This document shows, in pieces, positions 9,201 to 40,630 of a stretch of DNA of 64,000 nt; positions within the stretch are counted from its first letter, which is position 1, and every line of letters starts with the position of its first letter. Source of the stretch: Azolla caroliniana (taxonomy: Eukaryota; Plantae; Polypodiophyta). The notes beneath the pieces are model-generated. The model was not told where the DNA came from, ran no database searches, and worked only from the letters and a program-made list of their open reading frames with translations. The translations under genes and the position numbers were made by a program. Location of the stretch: NCBI GenBank assembly GCA_043228905.1, contig JBHGNT010000014.1, positions 4,402,001-4,466,000 of the forward strand, read 5' to 3'.

Positions 9201-10779
9201 CTCCAACATCTTCACCGTCATTTTCACGTTTCGCCATTTCTTGCACTTAGTCGCTATGGCTTGCACATCCGCATATCATTCTTCGACTTCGTCTCCAAAG
9301 GGGGTCGCCTTAGTGGTCGCCGAAAGGTGTTATAGGTTTTAGGGTTAGGGTTAAGGACGATGATAATCATGATAAAGATAGACATGTGTTGGGAGACAGG
9401 TCCCTCTGGATTGGAAGGGAGAAGAACAATGTTGATGAGCAAACTCGGCCGAGGCCGAAACCGAATGAGGAGTACCCGGCTACGGAGAGCCGGATGGTGC
9501 AGACCCGGTGAGAACCGGATGAGGAGTACCCGGCTACGGAGAGCCGGATGGTGCAGACCCGGTGAGAACCGGATGAGGAGTACCCGGCTACGGAGAGCCG
9601 GATGGTGCAGACCCGGTGAGCACCAGAGGAGGAGTACCCGGCTACGGAGAGCCGAATGGTGCAGACCCGGTGAGAACCGGATGAGGAGTACCCGGCTACG
9701 GAGAGCCAGATGGTGCAGACCTGGTGAGCACCGGATGAGGAGTACCCGGCTACGGAGAGCCGGATGGTGCAAACCCGGTGAGAACCGGATGAGGAGTACC
9801 TGGCTATGGAGAGCCGGATAGTGCAGACCCGGTGAGAACCGGATGAGGAGTACCCGGCTACGGAGAGCCGAATGGTGGAGACCCGGTGAGGAGTGCTCAC
9901 CGGATGAAGAGACATATTCGTAAATATGTTTCGGAGAGTCCATCGAGGCTATATTTGTAAATAGTATAAATATGACTTAGGGCAAACTTTTATGTAGTAG
10001 TCGTTGTCATTCTTGTTGGCGTAAGAAGAGAGTGTGTGTAACAGTGTACAGAGAGTGAGAGAGAGAGAGGAAGAGGTCGTTGCCTCTGTTGTAACCACCG
10101 CCTGTGGCGAAGGTCATGAGCGCGAGGTCGTTCCCTCCGTGGGCTCACTGTTGTAATCATTGTGATATAGTGATGGTTTGGAGTCTGTGGACTCCCGTGG
10201 TTTTTCCCTCTCAGGGTTTTCCACGTTAAACATCCTGTATACTTTTCTCTCCTCTGTGTTGTGTCTTCACCTTTCCCGTTTTCTGTGTATGATTCTAAGC
10301 TCGGTTGTGGCTGAGCGTTGCGCATAAGGAGCATTTAGTTCCTGTCAACATGGTGGTTATGATGATGATGGAGAGTATGGGATTGATGGCGAGAGAGATC
10401 ATGTGCATTGAGAAGCATTGCGGGGTGGGGGGTGGTGCCTAGAATGGCTCCACCCCCCTCCCAAGGGGATTCAACGTTAAGGGGGAGAGAGAGATTGAGA
10501 GAGAAAAATGATTATTCATGTTTCATTCATTCCCCATAAGGGGTTAAATAGTACAAGGAGGGGTAGATACATAGGGGTGTAAGCCCCCTCGAGCATTCAT
10601 ACTGGACACTCACTCACACCTCCTCATGTCCATCCACATGCACACACGCGTGCATGTGTTCACATACGTATAGACTCACAATTACATTTATGCCCCCTAC
10701 ACATACACAACAATATCATGATAACATTTGACCCTCGCTCATCACACTTGACTCTTCGTACATCTCGTACGGGGTAACA
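6262..10779 (+). mobile_element. Non-autonomous two-LTR element with Arg-type PBS (LARD-like)
   Basis: LTRs at 6262-6775 and 9328-10779 (the latter split by a solo LTR). TSD TGGTT/TGGTC inside Copia A. PBS TGGCACGCCTGTGGGA at 6781. No gag or pol motifs in the 2.55-kb interior. Confidence 0.85.
9387..10347 (+). mobile_element. Solo LTR, same family as 327-1352
   Basis: TG...CA ends with perfect TSD ACATG (9382-9386, 10348-10352), a 54-bp repeat array and a TATAAATA box. Confidence 0.9.
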
Positions 10780-13700
10780 TGGTCATTTACGAATAGTGAT
10801 GCGCCATGTAGTCATTGTATCCATACCATTTTATGGGGATCTTTTGGCGGGTTGACTGGCGCAATTTTTCGGCAGCCGGTTTGAGGCCCTTCTTGGCCGG
10901 TTTAGACTTCGTTTCTAAAGTTCCGCCTTCATCCTTTCCGGAGTCAGATTCACTCCGATCTAACCTTTCACTGCCAGTAACGTATGCTGGCATCTTCTTC
11001 TTTCCCTTCTCTTTGTACATGAACCGTCTCCTCAATTCCTTGCACGGGAAGAGCATGACAGAGTCTCCCCAACTCGCCGGTTCTTCATCCGACTGGTCAT
11101 TCCGACTAAGTCCATCGTTTGGCTCGCTCAGCCAAAATGAGATTGGACTCTCTTCTATAGTACATAATTCCTCATCTTCTTCGTGAACCTCTCTAGGTTC
11201 ACTAGCCTCATCCTCTAGAATTGGGTCTTTGTCGGGAGTTGGAGTCGGTAGAGAATATCATGATGCCGACTCATCAAACTCGACATCTTGACTTACTCGA
11301 ACTTGTTTAGTCTGGGAGTTATAACACTTATACCCCTTCTGTTCATGTGAGTTAGTCGACGAGTAGGCACTTCTCCGACTTCGGATCCAACTTCCTCTGC
11401 TTCTCATCCGGTATATGCACATATGCTATGCTATCGAATATCCGAAGGTGTCTCAAATTCGGCTTCCACCCGAAATACAACTCATGTGTTGTTACCTTAT
11501 CTCTGATCCAGATTTGGATCTAGACGGCTACCCAGACTACCTCAACCTAGTAGAACCATGGCATATTTTTCTCCTCCAACATTGCCCTTGCAGCGTCGAC
11601 AATCAATCGATTCTTTCTCTTAGCCACACCGTTTTGTTCCGGTGTGTATCGGCAGCTGAATTCTCTCCGAATTCCTTTTTGCTACAAATAACTTTTGAAT
11701 TGGCCGGAAAAGTATTCCTCTCCGCCATCTGACCGTAGGCACTTGATTTTTCTTTCTCTTTTCCTCTCGAGTAGGCTTTGTAGATTCCGAAAATAGTCGA
11801 AGACTTAACTTTTCCTCTCAAAGAGGTAGATCCATGTGTGCCGACTGTAGTCGTCGATGAAGGAGACAAAATACCAACTCCCGCCAAGACTAATGTTCTC
11901 TGATGGTCCCCATACATCCGAATGGATTAAGTTGAGCTTGTTATGGCTCCAGTTTGGTTCGGTGGGGAATGGAAGCCGGTGTTGTTTCCCTAGTTCGCAT
12001 GGTTCACATATTTGGGCCTTTTGGCCTCTGAATTTCGTCAATCCGAGAACAACTTGTTTCGAATGTAGGTCTTGAAACCTCTGGTAGTTGATGTGGCCAA
12101 TCCACTTGTGCCAAAGATCGATGTTCGATTCAGTCTTCTGTCCTTTGGCAAACAAGGCGGTGCCAACGTTGTTGGTGTCAAGGATGAACATCCTCCCATC
12201 TCTGTGCCCTTGCACAATTATCCGGCCTTCTTCCTCGATGAAGCACTCGAGGTGCGTAAACCGCACCTGCATTCCCTGGTCGACGATTTATCCGACTGAC
12301 ACTAGGTTCTTTGTGATTGTCGGAACATGTAGTACGTTCATCAACATTCCCTTTTGTCCAACATGGCTTACGGGGACTTCTCCGACATGCACAATCGGGT
12401 GACGGGTGTCGTCTTCGGTTTTGATGATTCCCGGTTGTTCCGGTTTCTCTAAAAACGAGAACCACTCTTCATGGCTCATCATATGGTTTGAGGCTCTGGA
12501 ATCAACATACCATACTTCCGCTGCTTTGGAAGTAGTCTTCTTCATCGAGTTAGCCTTGTGCTTCATCACAAAGGTTGGCCCCTTTCCAGTTTTCCCGGTT
12601 CCGGATCCTTCCAATCCTTCTACATAGTTCAAGCTTTGCCAGTTTCCCTGTCCGGCCTTGCTAGATCCGGATTTGTCTGAATCGGCGCACTTCTTCCAGC
12701 ACTCGCTTTCTCTGTGGCCTTCCTTGCCACAATACCGGCATTCCATGTCGGCCTTCCCTTGTCGGTTTTCGGCGCCATTTTGACTCCCCCTCCTCGTGAA
12801 GGATCCAGAACTGCTGTTGACATTGTCTCGGTGCCTTTGATTCTGCTCTTGCTGGATGTCTCCATTACGTGCCGACCCACCTCGTCCTCCACGCCCACGG
12901 GGCCGGTTCGCCTTCGTGTACAACATCCGGTTGTCTGGTTGAGTGATCCTCAACCCACTCGCGTTGTTTTCTTCGACCATCAACATCGATAGCAGGTCGA
13001 AGAAGGACAGTGGCTTCTCCCGGGTGCATATCACCGTCCGGATTGGCCCGTACCGTTGTGCTAGACCACCAAGGTAGATTTGTACTATTTCGTCTTCGTC
13101 CACCGTCACATTGATGGACCCGAGCGCATCACAAATCTCCTTTATTTTGATGGTGTACTCCATAACCGACATATCTCTATGCCGGATGTTGTTTAGCTCT
13201 TGCCAGAGCTGCAACTTACAGGCTGTGGTACTTGCAGCGAAAATCTTCAGAAGATTTTCCCAAGCCTCCTTCGGTGTTTTTGCATCCTTGATGTAGCCAA
13301 GCATCTGATCGTGCACACAGGATGCGAGGAAGTACAACACTCTGCTCGCTCCTTGTTCCCATGTCGGGAAGTCCTTGTGCGTTGGCTCCGGCGCTACATT
13401 GTTCGTTCCTTCCACATAGCTCCAGTAACCATGCCCCAGTAGGTACTGGTGCATTTTATATGACCAAGATGCATACTTTCTCCAGTCGAGCTTTTCTATG
13501 GGGAGCGAACTTGCCATACCTCTGTCCATCTTGGTTCTCTTCTATTCTTCATTGGGTGTTACGGTTTGTCTATGAAAGCGTTGGTTGTCTGTAGAGAAGT
13601 CTCAACCCTCGCGCTCTGATACCATGTGAAGGTTAATATGCGGAAGCATATGACAATCCAGCTCAGCCAGATACCAACAGAATGTAGAGAAGAAGGTTTA

Positions 13701-26567: not shown

Positions 26568-26789
26568 TTTATCTAATCAACAAGTCTCCTTTTGTGCCTC
26601 TGAAAGGTGATGTTTCACAAAGGGTGTGGTTAGGTATAGATGTCTCCTACCAACACCCGGGGGTGTTCGGATGCCTAGTATATATGCATGTAACTAAGGA
26701 TAAGAGGTCGAAGCTCGATAGCAAGTAGAAACCATGCATATTTCTGGGGTATTCGGAGGATGAATTAGGCTATAGGCTATCCGAGAACC

Positions 26790-27495
26790 ATAGTTGAGTA
26801 AAGTAGCTAATTAGCTATCCTACTAGCTAATTAGCTACTACCATAGTTGAGTAACGTACCTAATTAGCTATCCTACTAGCTAATTAGCTACTGGCAACTA
26901 ATTAGCTATCCTAGTAGCTAATTAGCTGCTGGCAACTAATTAGCTATCCTACTAGCGAATTAGCTATCCTAGTAGCTACTGCCATAGTTGTGTAAAGTAG
27001 CTAATAAGCTATCCTAGTAGCTAATTAGCTACTGGCAGCTAATTATGTATCCTAGTAGCTAATTAGCTACTGGCAGCTAATTAGCTATCCTAGTAGCTAA
27101 TTAGCTGATGGCAACTAATTAGCTATCCTACTAGCGAATTAGCTATCCTAGTAGCTACTGCCATAGTTGTGTAAAGTAGCTAATAAGCTATCCTAGTAGC
27201 TAATTAGCTACTGGCAGCTAATTATGTATCCTAGTAGCTAATTAGCTACTGGCAGCTAATTAGCTATCCTAGTAGCTAATTAGCTACTGGCAGCTAATTA
27301 GCTGTCCTAGTAGCTAATAAGCTATCCTAACTACTACCATAGTTGAGTAAAGTACCTAATTAGCTATCCTAACTACTACCATAGTTGAGTAAAGTACCTA
27401 ATTAGCTATCATACTAGCTAATTAGCTATCGTACTAGCTAATTAGCTATCCTAGCTTCTACCATAGTTTAGTAAAGTAGCTAATTAGCTATCCTA
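26790..27495. repeat. TAGCTAATTAGCTA palindrome array (left)
   Basis: Dozens of copies of the 14-bp palindrome with short spacers and higher-order repetition; the array ends just before an AG splice acceptor at 27516-27517. Confidence 0.95.
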
Positions 27496-27517
27496 AATAA
27501 CTGTCATGTTATTGTAG

Positions 27518-29396
27518 AATCTTGTGGATTAAGGACGGCACATGATGTGTCTGGTGCTGATGATGCTGCAACAGATGAGGATACTACTGCCAATGTGGCT
27601 GAAAGTAAGAGTCCTGCTATCACATCTCCTTCAGATCAGCTGCACCCTATTCTTTTGGAACAGTGTACTGAATTAGGCAACGATGTGAAATGCCATGAAA
27701 TAGTGGAAACAACATGTAAAACTGAGGTTCACAACAACAGTGTTTATGAACACTTGATGCAACATTTCTTCGAGTCTCAAGACCTTGATTCCACCCCACC
27801 GAGCCCAACTACTGAAAATGTCCAAACAGATCCCTCTGTACTTGAAAAGCTAGTTCAAGAAACGGCTGATGTGCAATTAGCTGCTGAGGCGATGGGAAGG
27901 TTGTCGGAGGAGGACACACTTGCGCATTGGGTCCTAGAAGCAAGGCTAAATGGGGAACCAACCAGAAAAAGGCTGAAGAAGGGGCCACGATCGGGAACAA
28001 GACCAGTTACTCGGTCAAGGGGCCCAGACGTAGTGGAGCGAAATACTGTTTAGTTGGATATGATTGTTAGCTTAGGGATTTTGCTAGGGTTTTATGAAGT
28101 TTTACTATCCTGTTGGACAAGTAAAACCTCAGATTGGTTGTTGCTTGATCCACATTATGTAATGGAACTCTATGATGTTTTTCCAAGATAATTTGAAGAG
28201 TGTTGTTCTATGACTGAAACTCTTTGATGTTCAGGATATTGTTTTGTGAGACTAGTAGTTACTTTGTGAGTGTGAATATGTTGGTGTTTTCTGATGTTGC
28301 AGAGTCTAAAGGGTTTGATTCTATTGCTCGTAAGGCCAATGGCAGTGTGGATACTGTTGATGTTGCGGCATGTTTAAAGGGCCCCATCTTGAAAGTAGAT
28401 GTAGCAACTGACACAAGTGATCTGGTCACACAAGTTGATCAAGCATGTAGCACGGATGACTTGGTGTTGCAGGTAGATGCAGCATGTAGCACGGATGACT
28501 TGGTGTTGCAGGTAGATGCAGCATGTAGCACGGATGACTTGGTGTTGCAGGTAGATGCAGCATGTAGCACGGATGACTTGGTGTTGCAGGTAGATGCAGC
28601 ATGTGATACCAGTGGATTGATATCGAGCAGAACAGTAGCTACATGCACTGAGGTAATCCAAGGATTGATAACTAAGTCGACAAAACAAGAGCACCAGAAT
28701 GTGAAGCTAGGCCCAACACAGTCGACTAGGGGTTTAAAGAGGAAAAGGACACCAGTTGTGTCAGCCGAACCTGAGCTGATTGAGATTGATCGTATCCTAC
28801 CAGAAAATGGTGTAACAGCGGCTCAGTTTCAGGAATGGAAACCTAAACCACTAGAAGTCGAGCGAAGAGCCTTGATCTTGGAGCTGGATAAAGTCTTGAT
28901 GAGTGTGAGATATATGCAGCCAAGGAGGGACGCAAATCAGTTTCTAGAGTGGGCTGCGGAGTACTTCGATTTGTTTATTTGGAGTGAGAAACCAAAATCA
29001 GATGTGTGGAAGTGTTTGGCAAGATTCTTCCCAAAATGGCGAAGTCGTTTTAAAGGTCAATGGGCACGAGAAAATTGTGAGCAGATGGAAGCTGCAAGAT
29101 TCAAGAGGCTTTCTGATTTTTGGGCTACTTGGCCTGAATATAATGCTGACAATACATTGATTTTGGATACAGAACATTTCCGACACTACTTCAATATTCG
29201 GAGATGCTGTCTCATTCTACCCGAGGAAATGCCTGAACAGTACCTGGTGCAAACAGTGAGCTGCCAACTAGGTGCATGGTTGTGGACTCCATACCGAGCT
29301 CAATATGCGGATAATATATGTAGACTCGTTCCACTGACTAGCAAGAGCTTAGCTGTTTATAGGAGATTTGTAGACATTTCCAATGGTAATTTATAA
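27518..29396 (+). CDS. Transposon accessory protein, 5'-truncated: 13-aa repeats, KRKR NLS and C-terminal FCP1/NIF-like (HAD-fold) domain
   Basis: Predicted exons 27518-27604 and 28303-29396 (phase-1 GT/AG). Motifs LILELDKVL...RRDANQFLEW..YFDLFIWS...WARENC...KRLSDFW...NTLILD follow the NIF/SCP pattern. No start exon is visible. Confidence 0.6.
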
Positions 29397-29579
29397 ATAT
29401 GTAAAGAGATGACATTATTCAATGAAGAATTTTGTTCCCACTGTACTTATCTACTATGTAATTTGAGGAATATGTTGCAGATTGTTGATTTCATTCTATT
29501 GATGACTATTTAGCTATTGACAGCTAATTAGCTACATTTGTACAGCTAATTAGCTGCATTTGTACAGCTAATTAGCTGC

Positions 29580-30055
29580 ATTTGTACAGCTAATTAGCTA
29601 CTGATGAGTCTGTCGCTATAACTTATAACTTAAAACTTAACAAAAAAGACATGATTTTATTGAGAAAGAAGCACAGAAAGCAGACTGTATACAAGAATTT
29701 GATTCCAAACGAATTTATTGATCTGTTTTCGCGAAATACATGTTTGTTTTACAAGAGAACATGGTAAGTGCTACTTGTAGCTACAAATTCCATGGCATAC
29801 TATTGTAAATACATTTGTACAGCTAATTAGCTACTGATGAGTCTGTCGCTATAACTTATAACTTAAAACTTAACAAAAAAGACATGATTTTATTGAGAAA
29901 GAAGCACAGAAAGCAGACTGTATACAAGAAATTGATTCCAAACGAATTTATTGATCTGTTTTCGCGAAATACATGTTTGTTTTACAAGAGAACATGGTAA
30001 GTGCTACTTGTAGCTACAAATTCCATGGCATACTATTGTAAATACATTTGTACAG
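29580..30055. repeat. 233-bp tandem duplication of the transposase stop and 3' UTR
   Basis: CTGATGAGTC recurs at 29601 and 29834; the last codons (CIYNSMPWNL*) are duplicated. Confidence 0.9.
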
Positions 30056-33000
30056 CTTAGCACCAACAGTGTATAAACCGGAGCAGCTATTGTATTCTGA
30101 CATTGGGACGTTGATGCATCTGACCAAATGAGAGTACATATACGCTGCTGGTTTGTCTTCTAACAGCCTGTACACATATTCGTAGTCATCTAGTTTTGCA
30201 TAAAAAATGCCTTCGATGTAGAATGTCCCGGCAGATACAAAATTTCCCCATGCATCTACAATATTCTGCCTTGCACACTGTTTACTAACCGTGCACTTTA
30301 ATATATAGAAATCAACACCCTCTGAATTGCCTTCTTCAGCATTTACAGCGAAGTTATCCCCAACGTTCAGGACATCACTCAAAGTATCTCCAAGTCCCTC
30401 ATATGTGAAGTCAGCATTCTGCCCTGTTTCTCCATCAACTGCTTCCTTATCATTCAGAGTGTGATACTCCCAATTCTGAATGTATGCTTTGTTTAGACAA
30501 TATCTCCAATTTCCCTGCACACAATGGAAGCAAAAACAAGTCAATTCTCTAACCGCAATACAATGACCATCCAACCTGGAATAACCGCGAACAGCATGCA
30601 GAGATCGCAATTCGGGAATTCCTTGGCACTCCCAGGTCTTCTCCCTATTTACTTCATCTATCTTCACTTCCCAAAATTCATGTTTGATATCTCGAACTTG
30701 CGAGGAATAAACACCTGTGGCACTCGTCGACATATTTGTTCTTAAAAATTCAACTACATGTGATGCACAATTCATGTGCACACCATCTGTCTTTAGTTGT
30801 TCATGGGTAAGTGCCCGCTTTATAACAGCCCCTGCACCATCATGTTCACCTTTACCATGGCCAGACCCAAAAAAATTCCATCTCATCTCCAAACCTGTTA
30901 TAGCAGGATACCTCCCCACAAAATAAAATGGACGTCGAGCCTTGAATTGTGACGCAGCTCCGTCAGACCAGACCCAATGTTGAGTAAGCTCCAAACGTTG
31001 AGCTAATAACCACTGCCAATGTAACTTAAAACAGTGTTGGACGAACAAGGTATCATGCTTCTTATCATCGGAAATAAAGAAATGAATTACTTTTTTAACA
31101 TCACCTGAAACTCGAAAATATGTTATGTGCACAAAAATGGTTACCTGAACTGAACACCAATGCATAGATTGAATTTCATTCTGCTGCTTGAAAGTATAAT
31201 TCTCTGCGAAATCTACTACTGAGACTACTACATCATTTGGGAAATCAGATATGCAAGTCTTAAACTGATGGGCCTGCCATGAATAAATGAAGTTGTGTTT
31301 AATGAACTTTCCTAGAGATACTACAAACAGAGACACCAAATCCCTTGGTTTAAGCATCTTCCGAACTAGATCCTTTCTTTTACACACCTTTCCTTCGAAA
31401 TTGGTGTTCACTGACTCAAATAACTTCACAGAGATCAATATTTCACTACTCAATTCTTTTGGACACCACCTAAATCTAGTAGGGCCACAATCTTGACATA
31501 AACCCATGACACATTTATGAATATGGAAGATAGCGTCAGATTCTCTCGGACACAATATTGAATCTAATAAATAACTCATGGAAGAGATAACGTGCTCAGA
31601 TGATTTACACTCCTCTTGCGGGCTTGATCGACAGATTTGGCACCCACATGTGCAAACTGTATTAGTTAGGGATGCGCTATGGTGACGTAGTAGATTAACA
31701 GAGTCCTTCAGAAAACCCATCTGTACATGGTAAATGCAACAACATGTGTATCGATCCTTTAAGCGTCTCACAAAGTGTGGCTTAAGAGACTCGAATGTTC
31801 GTAGTTGAACTTTGATAGTTGGATGCATTCGTTTGAACCTAATAAATAAATCGACCTGCGTAATAAAGGGGAATTAGTTATTCTCGTAACTAGCTAACTA
31901 TCCTAGTAGCTAATTAGCTATTCTAGTAGCTAGTTAGCTATTCTAGTAGCTAGTTAGCTATTCTAGTAGCCAATTAGCTATCATGGTAGCTAATTAGCTA
32001 TTCTAGTAGCTAATTAGCTATCATGGTACCTAATTAGCTGTCGTAGTAGCTAATTAGCTATCATGGTACCTAATTAGCTGTCGTAGTAGCTAATTAGCTA
32101 TCATGGTAGCTAATTAGCTGTCGTAGTAGCTAATTAGCTGTCGTAGTAGCTAATTAGCTATCATGGTAGCTAATTAGCTATTCTAGTAGCTAATTAGCTA
32201 TCATGGTAGCTAGTTAGCTGTCGTAGTAGCTAATTAGCTATCATGGTAGCTAGTTAGCTGTCGTAGTAGCTAATTAGCTATCATGGTAGCTAATTAGCTG
32301 TCGTAGTAGCTAATTAGCTATCATGGTAGCTAATTAGCTGTCGTAGTAGCTAATTAGCTATCATGGTAGCTAATTAGCTGTCGTAGTAGCTAATTAGCTA
32401 TCATGGTAGCTAATTAGCTATTCTAGTAGCTAATTAGCTATTCTAGTAGCTAATTAGCTATCATGGTAGCTAATTAGCTGTCGTAGTAGCTAATTAGCTA
32501 TCATGGTAGCTAATTAGCTGTCCTAGTAGCTAATTAGTTGTCCTAGTAGCTAATTAGCTATCATGGTGGCTAATTAGCTTGTCTACTAGCTAATTAGCTA
32601 TCATGGTGGCTAATTAGCTTTCCTAGTAACTAATTAGCTATCATGGTAGCTAATTAGCTGGTCTAGAAGCTAATTAGCTATCGTGGTAGCTAATTAGCTA
32701 GTCTAGTAGCTAATTAGCTATAATGGTGGCTGATTAGCTTTCCTAGTAACTAATTAGCTATCATGGTAGCTAATTAGCTGGTATAGTAGCTAATTAGCTA
32801 TCATGGTAGCTAATTAGCTATCACGGTGGCTAATTAGCTGTCCTAGTAACTAATTAGCTATCATGGTAGCTAATTAGCTGGTCTAGTAGCTAATTAGCTA
32901 TAATGGTGGCTAATTAGCTATCCTAACTAATTAGCTATCATGGTAGTAGCTATTGAGAGTAGCCAGTTACCTATGTAGTAGCTATCATAGTAGCTAATTA

Positions 33001-34049
33001 GCTATCATGGTAGCTAATTAGCTTTCCTAGTAGCTAATTAGTTGGTAATAACGAAATAGCTAACTAGCTACCATGATAGCTAACTAGCTAGCAGTACAGC
33101 TAATTATCTGGTAGTACCTAAATTAGCTATTGAGAATAGCTAATTAGCTATCATGGTAGTAACTATTGAGAGTAGCTAGTTACCTATGTAGTAGCGATCC
33201 TAGTAGCTAACTGAGGTAAATGTAACTGATAAGCTAATTAGCTTTTCTGCTAACTGAGCTAATTAACTTTCCGAGTAGAGTCAAAACAAATGTTGAGATA
33301 AATGTAAATACCTGAGGTACATCAAGAAGATGAATGGGATGCTCCTCGTATTGATTTCTTCCAACACGTTTCCTGCATAAATCCTTTTTATTGGGTGAAA
33401 CCCTACTCTCATTAGTCCAAAACATTGTGATTACATCCTTGATTTCAAATGTTATGGGTGTCATTGGCTTACATCTTGTAGTTAGCTTTAGTAGACTAGT
33501 TCCTTCACCCGAGGAAATTATACGGTTCATTGTATTGTACACTGTTTTTCTACTAACACCAATTACCTTAGATAGCTCACTGATGTTTATATCGTCAACA
33601 TCACTATTAAGTAACATCATTAGACTAGACCTTTTTAAGACAAGATCATCTTCTGACCTGCTCATGGATACGAAACTATTACGAAGATTATTTACTAAAA
33701 TAGATGATATGTTTGCATTAAGACCATCACAATCAACTAAGTCCTTTATCGATGGATCATTACATATTCCATAAAGTACTACCTTCTTTTCTTCATTGCT
33801 GATGTGCTTGGTTTGAACATTGAAATAGTCTACAACCTTTCTCTCTATGATGGTAGTCGCATTACTTACATTCTCATCTAAACTATCCTTACCTTTACTG
33901 AGTGTGGCTTTCGTATCCTTCAACAATTGACGATGTTTCCTTTTTTTTTCTGCCCAATAGTTTCGTATGGCTTGTTGTGTCCTGATAACATCATCCCTAT
34001 CCTTATGATCATTGAGGGGTAATTCTAAACACCCTTCTTCCCCTTCCAT
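30014..34049 (-). CDS. Sola2-like DDD transposase, two exons (34049-33312, 31855-30014), about 860 aa
   Basis: A phase-0 GT...AG intron joins LLDVPQ|VDLFIRFKRMHP. Motifs RYTCCCIYH, VDFAENY-QNEIQSMHW, SDDKKHD, WSDGAASQFK and FFGSGHGKGEHDGAG. No stops or frameshifts. Confidence 0.8.
31880..33265. repeat. TAGCTAATTAGCTA palindrome array filling the transposase intron
   Basis: 20-bp period (14-bp palindrome plus a 6-bp spacer such as TCATGG, TCGTAG or TTCTAG), roughly 60 units. Confidence 0.95.
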
Positions 34050-34394
34050 TTGGCTAGACATGTTAAAACCCTAAATTTCCAGAAAAAAAAACAAGTATTA
34101 AAGATGGCTATGGGCAACAACAATACACAAAAATATTCCACACAATACACAAGATTAGACACAACAATACACAAGATAATCAATAGACAGAAAAGTTATT
34201 GCAATCCAAGACCGAACAGTAGAGGATTTCACTCTGTTGGATCCAACAGTTGAGGAGGCGATCCAAGACCGACCAATGGCAACAACTGAGTGTAGAATGT
34301 TGCCGTTGGATGAGTGAACTCCGTCAAATCGAAATGTGGAAGCAATCCGGGACTGGACAGTAGTGGCAACTGAGTATAGAATGATGGCAATGGA

Positions 34395-35045
34395 GGAGAG
34401 AACCCCGTCAGATTGAACAGTTACCGATGATGCTTGAAACGCACATAGAAGGCACTTGAGAATAGAGTGGCATAGAGAAGAGAACCCCGTCAGATTGAAC
34501 AGTTACCAATGATGCTTGAAACGCACAGTAGCGGCCCCTGAGTGACAGTGGAAAAGAGAAGAGAACCCCGTCAGATTGAACAGTTACCAATGATGCTTGA
34601 AACGCACAGTAGCGGCCCCTGAGTGAGAGTGGAAAAGAGAAGAGAACCCCGTCAGATTGAACAGTTACCAATGATGCTTGAAACGCACAGTAGCGGCCCC
34701 TGAGTGAGAGTGGAAAAGAGAAGAGAACCCCGTCAGATTGAATAGCTCTTCGATTATGCTTGGAACGCACAGTAGCAACCCCTGAGTGTAGAGTGGCAAA
34801 GAGAAGAGAACCCCGTCAGATTGAACAACTCTTTGATGATGCTTGGAACGCACAGTAATGGCCCCTGAGTGTAGAGTGGCACAGAGAAGAGAACCCCGTC
34901 AGATTGAACAGCTCTTTGATGATGCTTGGAATGCACAATAGTGGCCCCTGAGTGTAGAGTGTCACAGAGAAGAGAACCCCGTCAGATTGAGCAGCTCTTT
35001 GATGATGCTTGGAACGCACAGTAGCAGCCCCTCAGTGTAGAGTGG
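34395..35045. repeat. 81-83-bp tandem repeat x8 upstream of the transposase
   Basis: The CAG of GAGAACCCCGTCAGATTGA recurs at 34409, 34491, 34572, 34653, 34734, 34817, 34900 and 34983. Confidence 0.9.
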
Positions 35046-35891
35046 CGGCAGGTGGACTCGATAGGGTTTAGCAACAGTGGTAGCAACTAACCCACAGTAC
35101 TCAACTAGAGATGGCCTACGTGATGTGGCAAAGGATCATGCATAATGGACCTAGGAATTCGATATATAATTTATGGTACACATTTATGGTGCACACATCA
35201 ATTTATGTTGCACATTTATGGCACTCATTTACATATGTAATTAAAACACTCTAGTATTTTCAATGGTAGTTTTTTGCATACTTAATTTATTAATGATGGC
35301 TTTTTACTAAAATGACTATTTATCAATGGTAGCTTTTTGCATAGCTAATTAGCTATGTCAAGGACATAGCTAATTGTTTCCACTCGCATGCTTTCACCCA
35401 TGGGACCTTCTCAATAAGAAGGTTGTGAGGAGTTGAGACTTTGTGTTTATGGAAGACAAGACAATCGAAGACTGGAAACAACAACATTTGGGGTTGTCTT
35501 GTCAACGGACTCCGAACACATGACTAGTCGACTTGGCACAATCGATTGTTAAGACAACCAATCGAAATAGCCGAATCCGAGTCGGTTGACTCGGAGCAAC
35601 TGACAAACACATATGAGTCGGAGTCAACAGAACTCCAACAACCAACTGACATGCATGAACCCGAGCTGAATGAAGAGCCAACAGAGACATCTGAACCTGA
35701 ACCAACAATGGGAGGCATGAGATATCCACTTAGAGAAAGGAGAGCACCCACACGATACGCCAATCAATACGTCCTCTTGATTGATGACAGTGAGCGAGAA
35801 TGCTATTATATGCGGATGACATGTTAATAGTCGGACAGGACACAAAGAAGATCGTGAGCTTAAAGAAAGCCCTAGACAAATCGTTTGCCAT

Positions 35892-39274: not shown

Positions 39275-39597
39275 AGGAGGAGGAGAAGGGTATTGTGGGC
39301 AATTTCTCAAAACCATTCTCTATCTCTCTTATACATGCCCTTTAGAGAGCTCTTTAGCAAACTATAGAGGAGAAGGGTATTGTGGGCAATTTCTCAAAAC
39401 CATTCTTTATCTCTCTCATACATATCCTTTGGAAAGCTCTTAAGCAAACAATAGAGGAGAAGGGTATTGTGGGCAATTTCTCAAAACCCTTCTCTATCTC
39501 ACTCATACGTGTCCTTTAGAGAGCTCTTCATCAAGTTGGAGAGAAGCCTTGGGTATTGTGGGCAATTTCTATAAACCCGTCTTTATCTCTCTCATAG
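39275..39597. repeat. ~90-bp tandem repeat x4, with a fifth copy at ~40660-40745
   Basis: GGGTATTGTGGGCAATTTCTCAAAACC...GAGAGCTCTT recurs. Confidence 0.8.
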
Positions 39598-40630
39598 AAA
39601 TTGGCAATAGTTCGAGAGTCTCAAACTCAATCGAACATAACTGAACCACGAAACTGTTTAAACCAAAATGTTATAAAAAATTCAATCTCAAAGCAAACGG
39701 TTTTAGAGACTTTCAAACCTTTAAACTATAAAAACCATGGTTTTGCGGTTTGGTTTTGGTTTTGAAGTTTGGTCAAAATTCAAAATTTCACATTTTAATT
39801 TTAAAAATTTTCAATTATTTCAAAATTTAAAGATTTTTCTTAAAATATCAAAATTAAGCTTAAAATGTTGAGAAAATTCTTGAAAATGATTGAGTTTCAA
39901 TCCTAAATCATCGAACCATTTTACACTGCAATTTTAAATCGTTTAAACCAAAACCATTAGCAATGGGCTCAGTTTTGTTTCGGTTTCGGTGCCTTGAAAC
40001 CAAACCAAACCCTTTATATAAAACAAAAACCAAACCAAACCGTTTATGAACATTCGAACATTTAAACCAAACCATTTTAAAAAAAGGTAAACTAAACCAT
40101 TTAAGCAAAAACCGTTTAGGGAAAAGTTAAAACCAAACTGAACCATTTAATAAAAGTTTAAACCTAACCACATTTAAGCCAAGCTAATTAAAAAATTAAT
40201 TAAATAAAAATACACAAAATTAAATAAGCATTTATGTTAAAATAAATAAATAAGATTAATTGAGCCATTAGATTAAATAAACAATTAAGTTAAGTGAATT
40301 AAACTAATGAAAAACATTAATTAAACCATTAAATTACATAAACATTTAATGGATAAGAAAAGATAGCCCAAAAACCTATAAACCCTAGTTTCAAAACTAA
40401 ACTGAACTGAAACCGAACCATTTATTATTAATTAAAACCAAACCAAATCATTTAATTATTTTGGAACTTATAAACCTTTAAACCATGGTTTAACGGTTCA
40501 GTTCGGTTTAAGCTGAAACTGGGCCCATTGCTAAAAACCATTAAACTGAGAAAAGGCTCAAACTAAACCGAAGTGAACCGTTTACAAAGACATGAACTTG
40601 AACCGAACCGTTTTAAACCGATACGCCGTT
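39598..40630. mobile_element. Possible AT-rich non-autonomous DNA transposon remnant
   Basis: Dense AAACC(G/A)/GGTTT motifs in both orientations; it interrupts the 90-bp repeat series. No clean TIR or TSD found. Confidence 0.4.

Follow-up and report, generated by a model that had tools for sequence, protein, structure and literature searches.

The window analysed here, 64,000 nucleotides of the fern Azolla caroliniana (contig JBHGNT010000014.1, positions 4,402,001 to 4,466,000), raises a question at the open reading frame of positions 28303-29396: How did a transposon come to encode a phosphatase-like domain with altered catalytic residues, and what could the element do with it? A sequence-only reading had seen in this frame a captured pseudo-phosphatase of the FCP1/SCP type, which may bind the phosphorylated C-terminal domain (CTD) of RNA polymerase II or other phosphoproteins and so influence transcription or silencing of the element. 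We find that the frame lies within a young, high-copy Sola2 DNA transposon (table 1), where it probably forms the final exon of an accessory gene.

The transposon-borne setting proposed earlier is borne out by the ends of the element, by its target duplications and by its transposase. The terminal inverted repeats (TIRs) are 24 bp long, have one mismatch and start with GGG; the TIR starts of Sola2 elements follow a GRG rule. Of ten copies retrieved together with 20 kb of flanking context, nine have both ends, and all nine show a 4-bp target site duplication (TSD), the mark of Sola/Sola2 according to the accessible parts of two reports (PMC3627910; PMC10741241). The two transposase exons (34061-30014, convergent to the accessory gene) give an open two-exon model of 863 aa that fits the DDD pattern of Sola2 (DFxENY / SDGxxxQFK / HGKG-x2-DG), and its DFAENY, SDGAASQFK and HGKG-x2-DG, when compared by eye, match the Sola2 alignment in the supplement of PMC3627910. 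Copies with both ends measure 11.1-12.8 kb, plus one of 18 kb. A genome search with the domain, which belongs to the NIF family, returned 607 candidates; all 150 that were scored match at 95-100% over 182 aa and about 124 of them, by hand count, are free of stops. The element is thus present in at least 150 near-identical genomic copies and has recently multiplied; Sola elements have been reported before as abundant in Azolla (PMC6786969, in its accessible text). Three other identities were considered and rejected: a host gene, by the position of the frame inside TIRs and its at least 150 copies; a CACTA, Mutator or hAT element, by TSD length and motifs; and a chance open reading frame, by the match to Pfam PF03031 (NIF; E 1.2e-7, 32 bits against a curated cut-off of 21.8).

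The copy in the window is incomplete. The left ~3.5 kb of the element, comprising the left TIR and exons 1-5 of the accessory gene, have been deleted, element bases 1-2346 being matched in the window by short repeat motifs only, and the integrase frame of the host Copia element is broken at about 26780 and taken up again at 35400. The full accessory protein cannot come from this decapitated copy. The intact frame claimed by the sequence-only reading therefore holds for the NIF exon, open from 28218 to the stop at 29396 with a CAG acceptor just before 28303, but not for the gene. A palindromic 12-mer, AGCTAATTAGCT, occurs 91 times in the 12.2-kb element, mostly within introns, between the genes and near the ends, and all of its 61 occurrences in the window fall inside the element. 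The rest of the window consists largely of nested LTR retrotransposons (8 of 14 long frames have a Pfam match, 7 of these being of retroelement type or DUF4100).

Some copies depart from the common plan. One (L047/L048) has two right TIRs ~1.1 kb apart (joined positions 12189 and 13282), the outer of which fits the TSD, suggesting that its right end was duplicated; another (L037/L038), of 17,973 bases, exceeds the typical length by ~5.7 kb while TIRs and TSD are still present. Beside one old copy (L138:1214-3420) the left-end exons occur once more, in inverted orientation and with greater divergence (about 70%). In the window, a 233-bp near-perfect duplication (29579-30057) lies where the accessory and transposase genes converge, between their 3' ends.

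Table 1. Features of the Sola2 copy in the window
Positions	Strand	Feature	Detail
26780..35399	.	Left-truncated copy of ~12.2-kb Sola2 DNA transposon, inserted in old Copia element	Collinear with full copies from about 26784
26787..27496	.	Remnant of tandem array of palindromic AGCTAATTAGCT motif (intron 5 of accessory gene)	
27518..28053	+	Exon 6 of accessory gene: acidic linker ending in basic patch and stop	In-phase internal donor after 27604
28054..28302	+	T-rich, intron-like spacer with CAG acceptor at end	In-frame ATG at 28278; T 0.42, GC 0.35, like introns 1-4 (measured in L031)
28303..29396	+	NIF exon: low-complexity linker, 13-aa repeats, KRKR, NIF/HAD domain (probable pseudo-phosphatase)	Domain about 28782-29393
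28442..28604	+	39-bp (13-aa) coding tandem repeat, 4.2 copies	Four exact STDDLVLQVDAAC units at 28449-28604
28737..28748	+	KRKR, predicted nuclear localisation signal	
28881..28898	+	Motif I ELDKVL, nucleophile Asp replaced by Glu	Glu in 85/86 copies
28980..28985	+	Motif II WS, Ser kept	85/86 copies
29103..29105	+	Conserved Lys at motif III position	85/86 copies; invariant in 25/25 rows of alignment A1
29166..29171	+	Motif IV DT (DD in active enzymes), within LDT(E) 29163-29174	85/86 copies
30014..31855	-	Sola2 transposase exon 2	DFAENY 31213-31196, SDGAAS 30967-30950, GHGKGEHD 30862-30839
31856..33311	-	Transposase intron filled with 20-bp AGCTAATTAGCT-bearing array	Array 31898-33159
33312..34061	-	Transposase exon 1, weak HTH match	HTH_11 E 6.7e-5, below cut-off
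34357..35046	.	83-bp tandem array upstream of transposase gene	
35376..35399	-	Right terminal inverted repeat, 24 bp, begins GGG	

What precedes the NIF exon can be followed in a full copy (L031), where five upstream exons on the same strand splice in phase to encode an N-domain of ~140 aa and of no assigned family, a coiled coil and a RING-H2-like finger; a repeat-filled intron, exon 6 and the NIF exon then follow in this order, and splice dinucleotides are largely conserved across young, middle and old copies. The sequence-only reading had passed over these upstream exons, as well as the Sola2 identity of the element and the truncation of the window copy. The stop of exon 6, present in young and old copies, yields a product of 618 aa, while the first of two in-phase donors inside this exon gives an open fusion of 820 aa with the NIF exon; exon 6 remains exon-like beyond the internal donor. 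The ATG in the spacer could be an alternative start for a separate protein. In contigs from run X2, which are presumed to be RNA of a relative, exon 3 is joined to exon 4 across a predicted GT..AG intron of 78 bases and exon 2 sequence stands directly before exon 3, so the 5' part of the gene is transcribed and spliced in that relative; coverage of exons 3-5 comes from X2 only among the four runs. On the NIF side the four runs contributed short pieces from X1, X2 and X3 and none from X4, with the splice joint in none of them; the deepest X2 contig there has small indels and may therefore derive from a defective copy. None of the reads or contigs in the runs examined connects the RING exons with the NIF exon.

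The RING-like exon has eight candidate ligands for a C3H2C3 pattern, the last pair being C-x3-C, with Pfam E values of 0.098-0.27 that lie below the cut-off, and it is devoid of the hydrophobic and Trp residues that usually contact the E2 in the canonical pattern. For the N-domain there was no Atlas match, no Pfam family on query and no convincing PDB sequence match; a fold search retrieved generic coiled-coil rows only, from a model too weak (pLDDT 66) to indicate either a new fold or the absence of a known one. A protein 52% identical to the N-domain exon (P0166) has no intron at the exon 3/4 border, which suggests that it belongs to a more remote family of elements whose gene is built differently.

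Turning to the NIF exon itself, the ELDKVL and LDT motifs, the 13-aa repeats and the KRKR of the sequence-only reading were all recovered where it had seen them; repeat units vary from 1 to 5 among 30 copies, and a basic patch at the place equivalent to KRKR is also present in the relatives from Adiantum and Ceratopteris. The domain was said to lack DxDxT/V, which is accurate for the nucleophile Asp but not for the second Asp of DxDxT, which is kept; the exact loss is the change of the first Asp to Glu and of DD to DT. The NIF/HAD fold was confirmed by an AF2 model built from 55 sequences (mean pLDDT 90), the top five structural matches of which are SCP1 (1t9z, Z 16.4, rmsd 2.6 over 147 aligned residues), UBLCP1 (Z 15.8), Tim50 (Z 15.4), CTDNEP1 and Fcp1 (down to Z 14.2), with Foldseek in agreement. 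A PDB sequence search with the single protein gave nothing useful, but a profile search of solved structures did give matches, with UBLCP1 the best (E 5e-16, vs 3e-9 for SCP1). The active enzymes UBLCP1, SCP1/2/3, CTDNEP1 and Fcp1 share the fold (Z 14-16), and UBLCP1 also the WS motif and a Y-N-x-x-N-T stretch, whereas the domain of the element is without the catalytic Asp, is only 15-19% identical to them and is accompanied by no UBL or BRCT that we could find. Tim50 is likewise a NIF pseudo-phosphatase, which in fungi has neither motif nor activity according to the accessible text of PMC13216928, but it is a mitochondrial import receptor that lost its motifs independently and is not transposon-borne. 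With its fold kept, its catalytic residues replaced in 85 of 86 copies and its codons under purifying selection (see below), the domain is probably a pseudo-phosphatase, as had been supposed.

In evolutionary terms, the captured domain can be traced through other ferns. A representative search with it gave 62 matches, 20 of which were looked up, the named ones being proteins of Ceratopteris richardii and Adiantum. In one model of Adiantum nelumboides (P0032), NIF stands together with matches to the N-domain (38%, E 2e-23) and to the RING-like exon (E 3e-10); its family counts 69 Adiantum models, 31 of which have the N-domain and the start of NIF and 10 all three parts in the order of the element, and a further Adiantum protein (P0050) joins the RING-like core to NIF. 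These fusions are predicted genes whose junction contains an intron-like stretch, and their transposon context is inferred from copy number, since transposase sequence was found in none of the Adiantum models. Motif I is mostly DLNGV in Adiantum (35 of the 38 models read), while Ceratopteris relatives have the Glu/DT state too, P0011 sharing Glu, DT and an 8-residue insert. Other relatives have degenerated differently at this motif (DxN, NxN, DxQ, ExE), and the canonical DxDxT is found in only 1 of 54 homologue rows. When the Azolla genome was queried with the distant homologues P0011, P0022 and P0027, the matches were of the type found in the element's family (L161 checked).

A tree of 53 rows, with 8 short ones omitted, places the Ceratopteris rows as sister to the element (100/99) within a clade of 25 rows that includes the Adiantum proteins (99/98), and this clade is nested among DxNG-type proteins, including one from a host locus (L058) whose long branch makes its placement unsure; five host SCP/CPL exons form a branch of their own, apart (100/100). 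From this placement, together with the profile match to UBLCP1, we infer that the captured gene was a DxNG-type NIF protein already without the general-acid Asp. The lineage shared with Ceratopteris then appears to have degenerated further after capture, losing the insertion after motif I, a segment that is down to 8 residues as against about 26-34 in most relatives. DxNG-type proteins resemble the domain in their clade apart from SCP/CPL, in the WS of motif II and in the lack of canonical DxDxT (53 of 54); in contrast to them, it is transposon-borne, linked to RING-like exons, and has lost the first Asp (now Glu) while the second is present, with DD changed to DT and the insertion deleted. 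A fungal group of 'NIF-domain pseudophosphatases', as presented in the accessible part of PMC13216928, is likely to be the counterpart of the DxNG-type proteins. The nearest host type to the captured domain is represented by two near-identical DxNG-type NIF genes, L058 and L059 (G000:C15:234883 and 261700), which are separated by 27 kb; the 3.5 kb retrieved there contain no motif of the element.

Selection was gauged on 86 copies (93 loci less 7 duplicates), of which 56 are young, 18 middle and 12 old. For the NIF domain, dN/dS between young and old copies is 0.29 (CI 0.19-0.42) at kappa 1 and 0.44 (0.31-0.64) at kappa 4, and between young and middle copies 0.21 and 0.30, all being pairwise values diluted by post-insertion decay, with intervals obtained by resampling codons alone, which disregards the relatedness of the copies. 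The transposase is close (0.23 and 0.34, young-old), and constraint extends to the N-domain (0.21/0.31) and to exon 4 (0.23/0.35), whereas the linker, the pre-repeat stretch and exon 6 have 0.58-0.75 at kappa 1 and 0.80-1.03 at kappa 4, with intervals that include 1. Constraint appears less clear for the RING-like exon, which has 0.49 (0.30-0.79) at kappa 1, 0.73 (0.47-1.18) at kappa 4 and young-middle values above 1. This comparison among copies, which the sequence-only reading had proposed, indicates that the NIF domain is under purifying selection between subfamilies (dN/dS 0.2-0.44). Variants private to single copies are neutral (pN/pS 1.06-1.32), as expected for a gene that is selected only through active elements. 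Neither of the outcomes that would have spoken against the captured domain was thus found, neither the lack of a HAD/NIF fold nor a neutral fragment unique to this copy, since the fold matches, the copies number at least 150 and selection is purifying.

What, then, could such a domain do? Tentatively, we favour for it the role of a non-catalytic arm that grips a partner, within a predicted nuclear helper protein neutralising a host factor. An ancestral fern element would have captured the DxNG-type gene, and the lineage shared with Ceratopteris would have lost, besides the nucleophile, one of the two Asp of motif IV and the segment of the insertion, while retaining Ser and Lys as a phosphate cradle. 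The domain would be expressed either spliced to the RING-like exons, as in the 820-aa model, or as partner of the 618-aa product; it would hold a phosphorylated host nuclear protein, which the RING-like part would ubiquitinate or sequester, thereby favouring expression or transposition of the element. That binding may suffice is plausible because Drosophila Dullard with the equivalent change of the first Asp to Glu (D66E) is inactive and still binds Mad, according to the accessible text of PMC5006046. With the basic patch before the domain and the RING-like and coiled-coil exons upstream, the likeliest of the readings considered is a nuclear adaptor that would grip a phosphorylated host protein and neutralise it, possibly by ubiquitination. 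Weighing against it are the stop of exon 6 and its exon-like stretch past the internal donor, the missing connection between RING and NIF exons in the runs, the intron-like junction of the predicted Adiantum fusions, the RING match below cut-off with its C-x3-C pair and its lack of E2-contact residues, the less clear constraint on that exon, and the indels of the deepest X2 contig. A stronger version, which we regard as rather unlikely, would make the product an element-encoded E3 that reads phosphorylation, with the dead phosphatase as substrate receptor, and that is targeted to the arrays and destroys a host silencing factor in Adiantum, Ceratopteris and this genome alike; if this were true, plants would have an anti-silencing system besides VANC and not related to it.

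The main rival explanation, because the anatomy of the element resembles that of VANDAL, is a DNA-targeted activator after the manner of VANC, possible though somewhat doubtful. The accessory protein would bind the AGCTAATTAGCT arrays, probably by its N-domain, and the dead NIF domain would recruit chromatin or transcription factors, with no transfer of ubiquitin. VANC of the Mutator-like VANDAL elements is also the product of a multi-exon accessory gene, its targets are motif arrays in introns and ends, and its variable regions contain peptide repeats (PMC5735166, in its accessible part), which compares well with the 91 motif copies, the location of all 61 window copies inside the element and the tandem peptide repeats in our variable linker. 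Against this reading, no Pfam match to VANC or the plant mobile domain was obtained in 37 aligned rows, the element belongs to a different superfamily, and the arrays could be binding sites of the transposase, since this has an HTH-like part. The likeness is one of anatomy, with no homology detected, and an anti-silencing role would follow by analogy; it is compatible with the helper-protein reading, the two not being exclusive.

Less probable, and in our opinion unlikely, is a cofactor of the transposase comparable to TnpA of CACTA, which would bind its own transposase or the element's ends and assemble or regulate the transpososome without needing a host target. In the old copies examined, the accessory gene does travel with the transposase (matches to the latter at 12 of the 15 non-host loci L066-L080), and selection on the two genes is of similar strength, but the Sola2 elements described in the accessible part of PMC3627910 carry Fanzor1 instead, so that such a partner is not universal. 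The CTD trap of the sequence-only reading, by which the domain would bind the CTD as SCP/FCP1 do and shield it from host phosphatases, fares worse and is very unlikely. SCP1 is tied for the best fold match, Ser and Lys are kept and KRKR precedes the domain; however, the donor is of the DxNG-type clade and not SCP/CPL, UBLCP1 is closest by profile, and the SCP insertion, which we take to form the CTD-proline pocket of SCP1, has been deleted, so this part of the earlier claim is not supported. It is highly doubtful that the domain is a still-active enzyme of non-standard chemistry, with a Glu nucleophile or a small-molecule substrate: it retains Ser and Lys, the second Asp and one Asp of motif IV, and some motif-degenerate phosphatases keep activity (PMC13216928, accessible part), but the same change inactivates Dullard (PMC5006046, likewise), motif IV is altered too, and motif I varies among relatives, the pattern expected if catalysis is dispensable. 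A neutral passenger without function is hardly credible and, on the codon evidence, already largely refuted, for the neutral decay after insertion and the decapitated window copy are outweighed by a NIF dN/dS significantly below 1 between subfamilies, beside an adjacent linker and exon 6 near 1, and by an architecture conserved in Adiantum.

Captured host domains are already known as transposon accessory proteins, and so are passengers on Sola2 elements (PMC3627910, accessible part). The Fanzor1-carrying elements DFa and PPa share with ours the transposase motifs, short TIRs, 4-bp TSD, a length of about 12 kb and a large passenger gene, which differs in being Fanzor there and N-domain, coiled coil, RING-like finger and NIF here. 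In the open-access literature searched, neither a NIF pseudo-phosphatase nor a RING-like accessory gene was found described for Sola elements, and the main text of an atlas of Arabidopsis transposon products (PMC13547354) has no occurrence of 'phosphatase' or 'RING'. Accessory proteins are the counter of elements to host control and in plants have been characterised mostly from Arabidopsis (VANC, TnpA); here a selected, multi-domain accessory gene is found on a Sola2 family that has expanded recently, and other ferns have relatives of it. Its copies, near-identical and to all appearance intact, lend themselves readily to cloning, to pull-down of partners and to excision tests. Many gene models annotated in ferns as 'FCP1 homology domain' may be transposon genes, as demonstrated for this genome only.

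Outside the element, the window has two 54-bp tandem arrays in opposite orientation (800-1255 and 9459-9890), probably of retrotransposon sequence, one frame of which gives a low-complexity Pfam match to GxHH repeats. An 87-bp tandem array at 39280-39596 is followed at 39650-40620 by an AT-rich stretch full of AAACC/GGTTT motifs, and the two together are possibly another, non-autonomous element.
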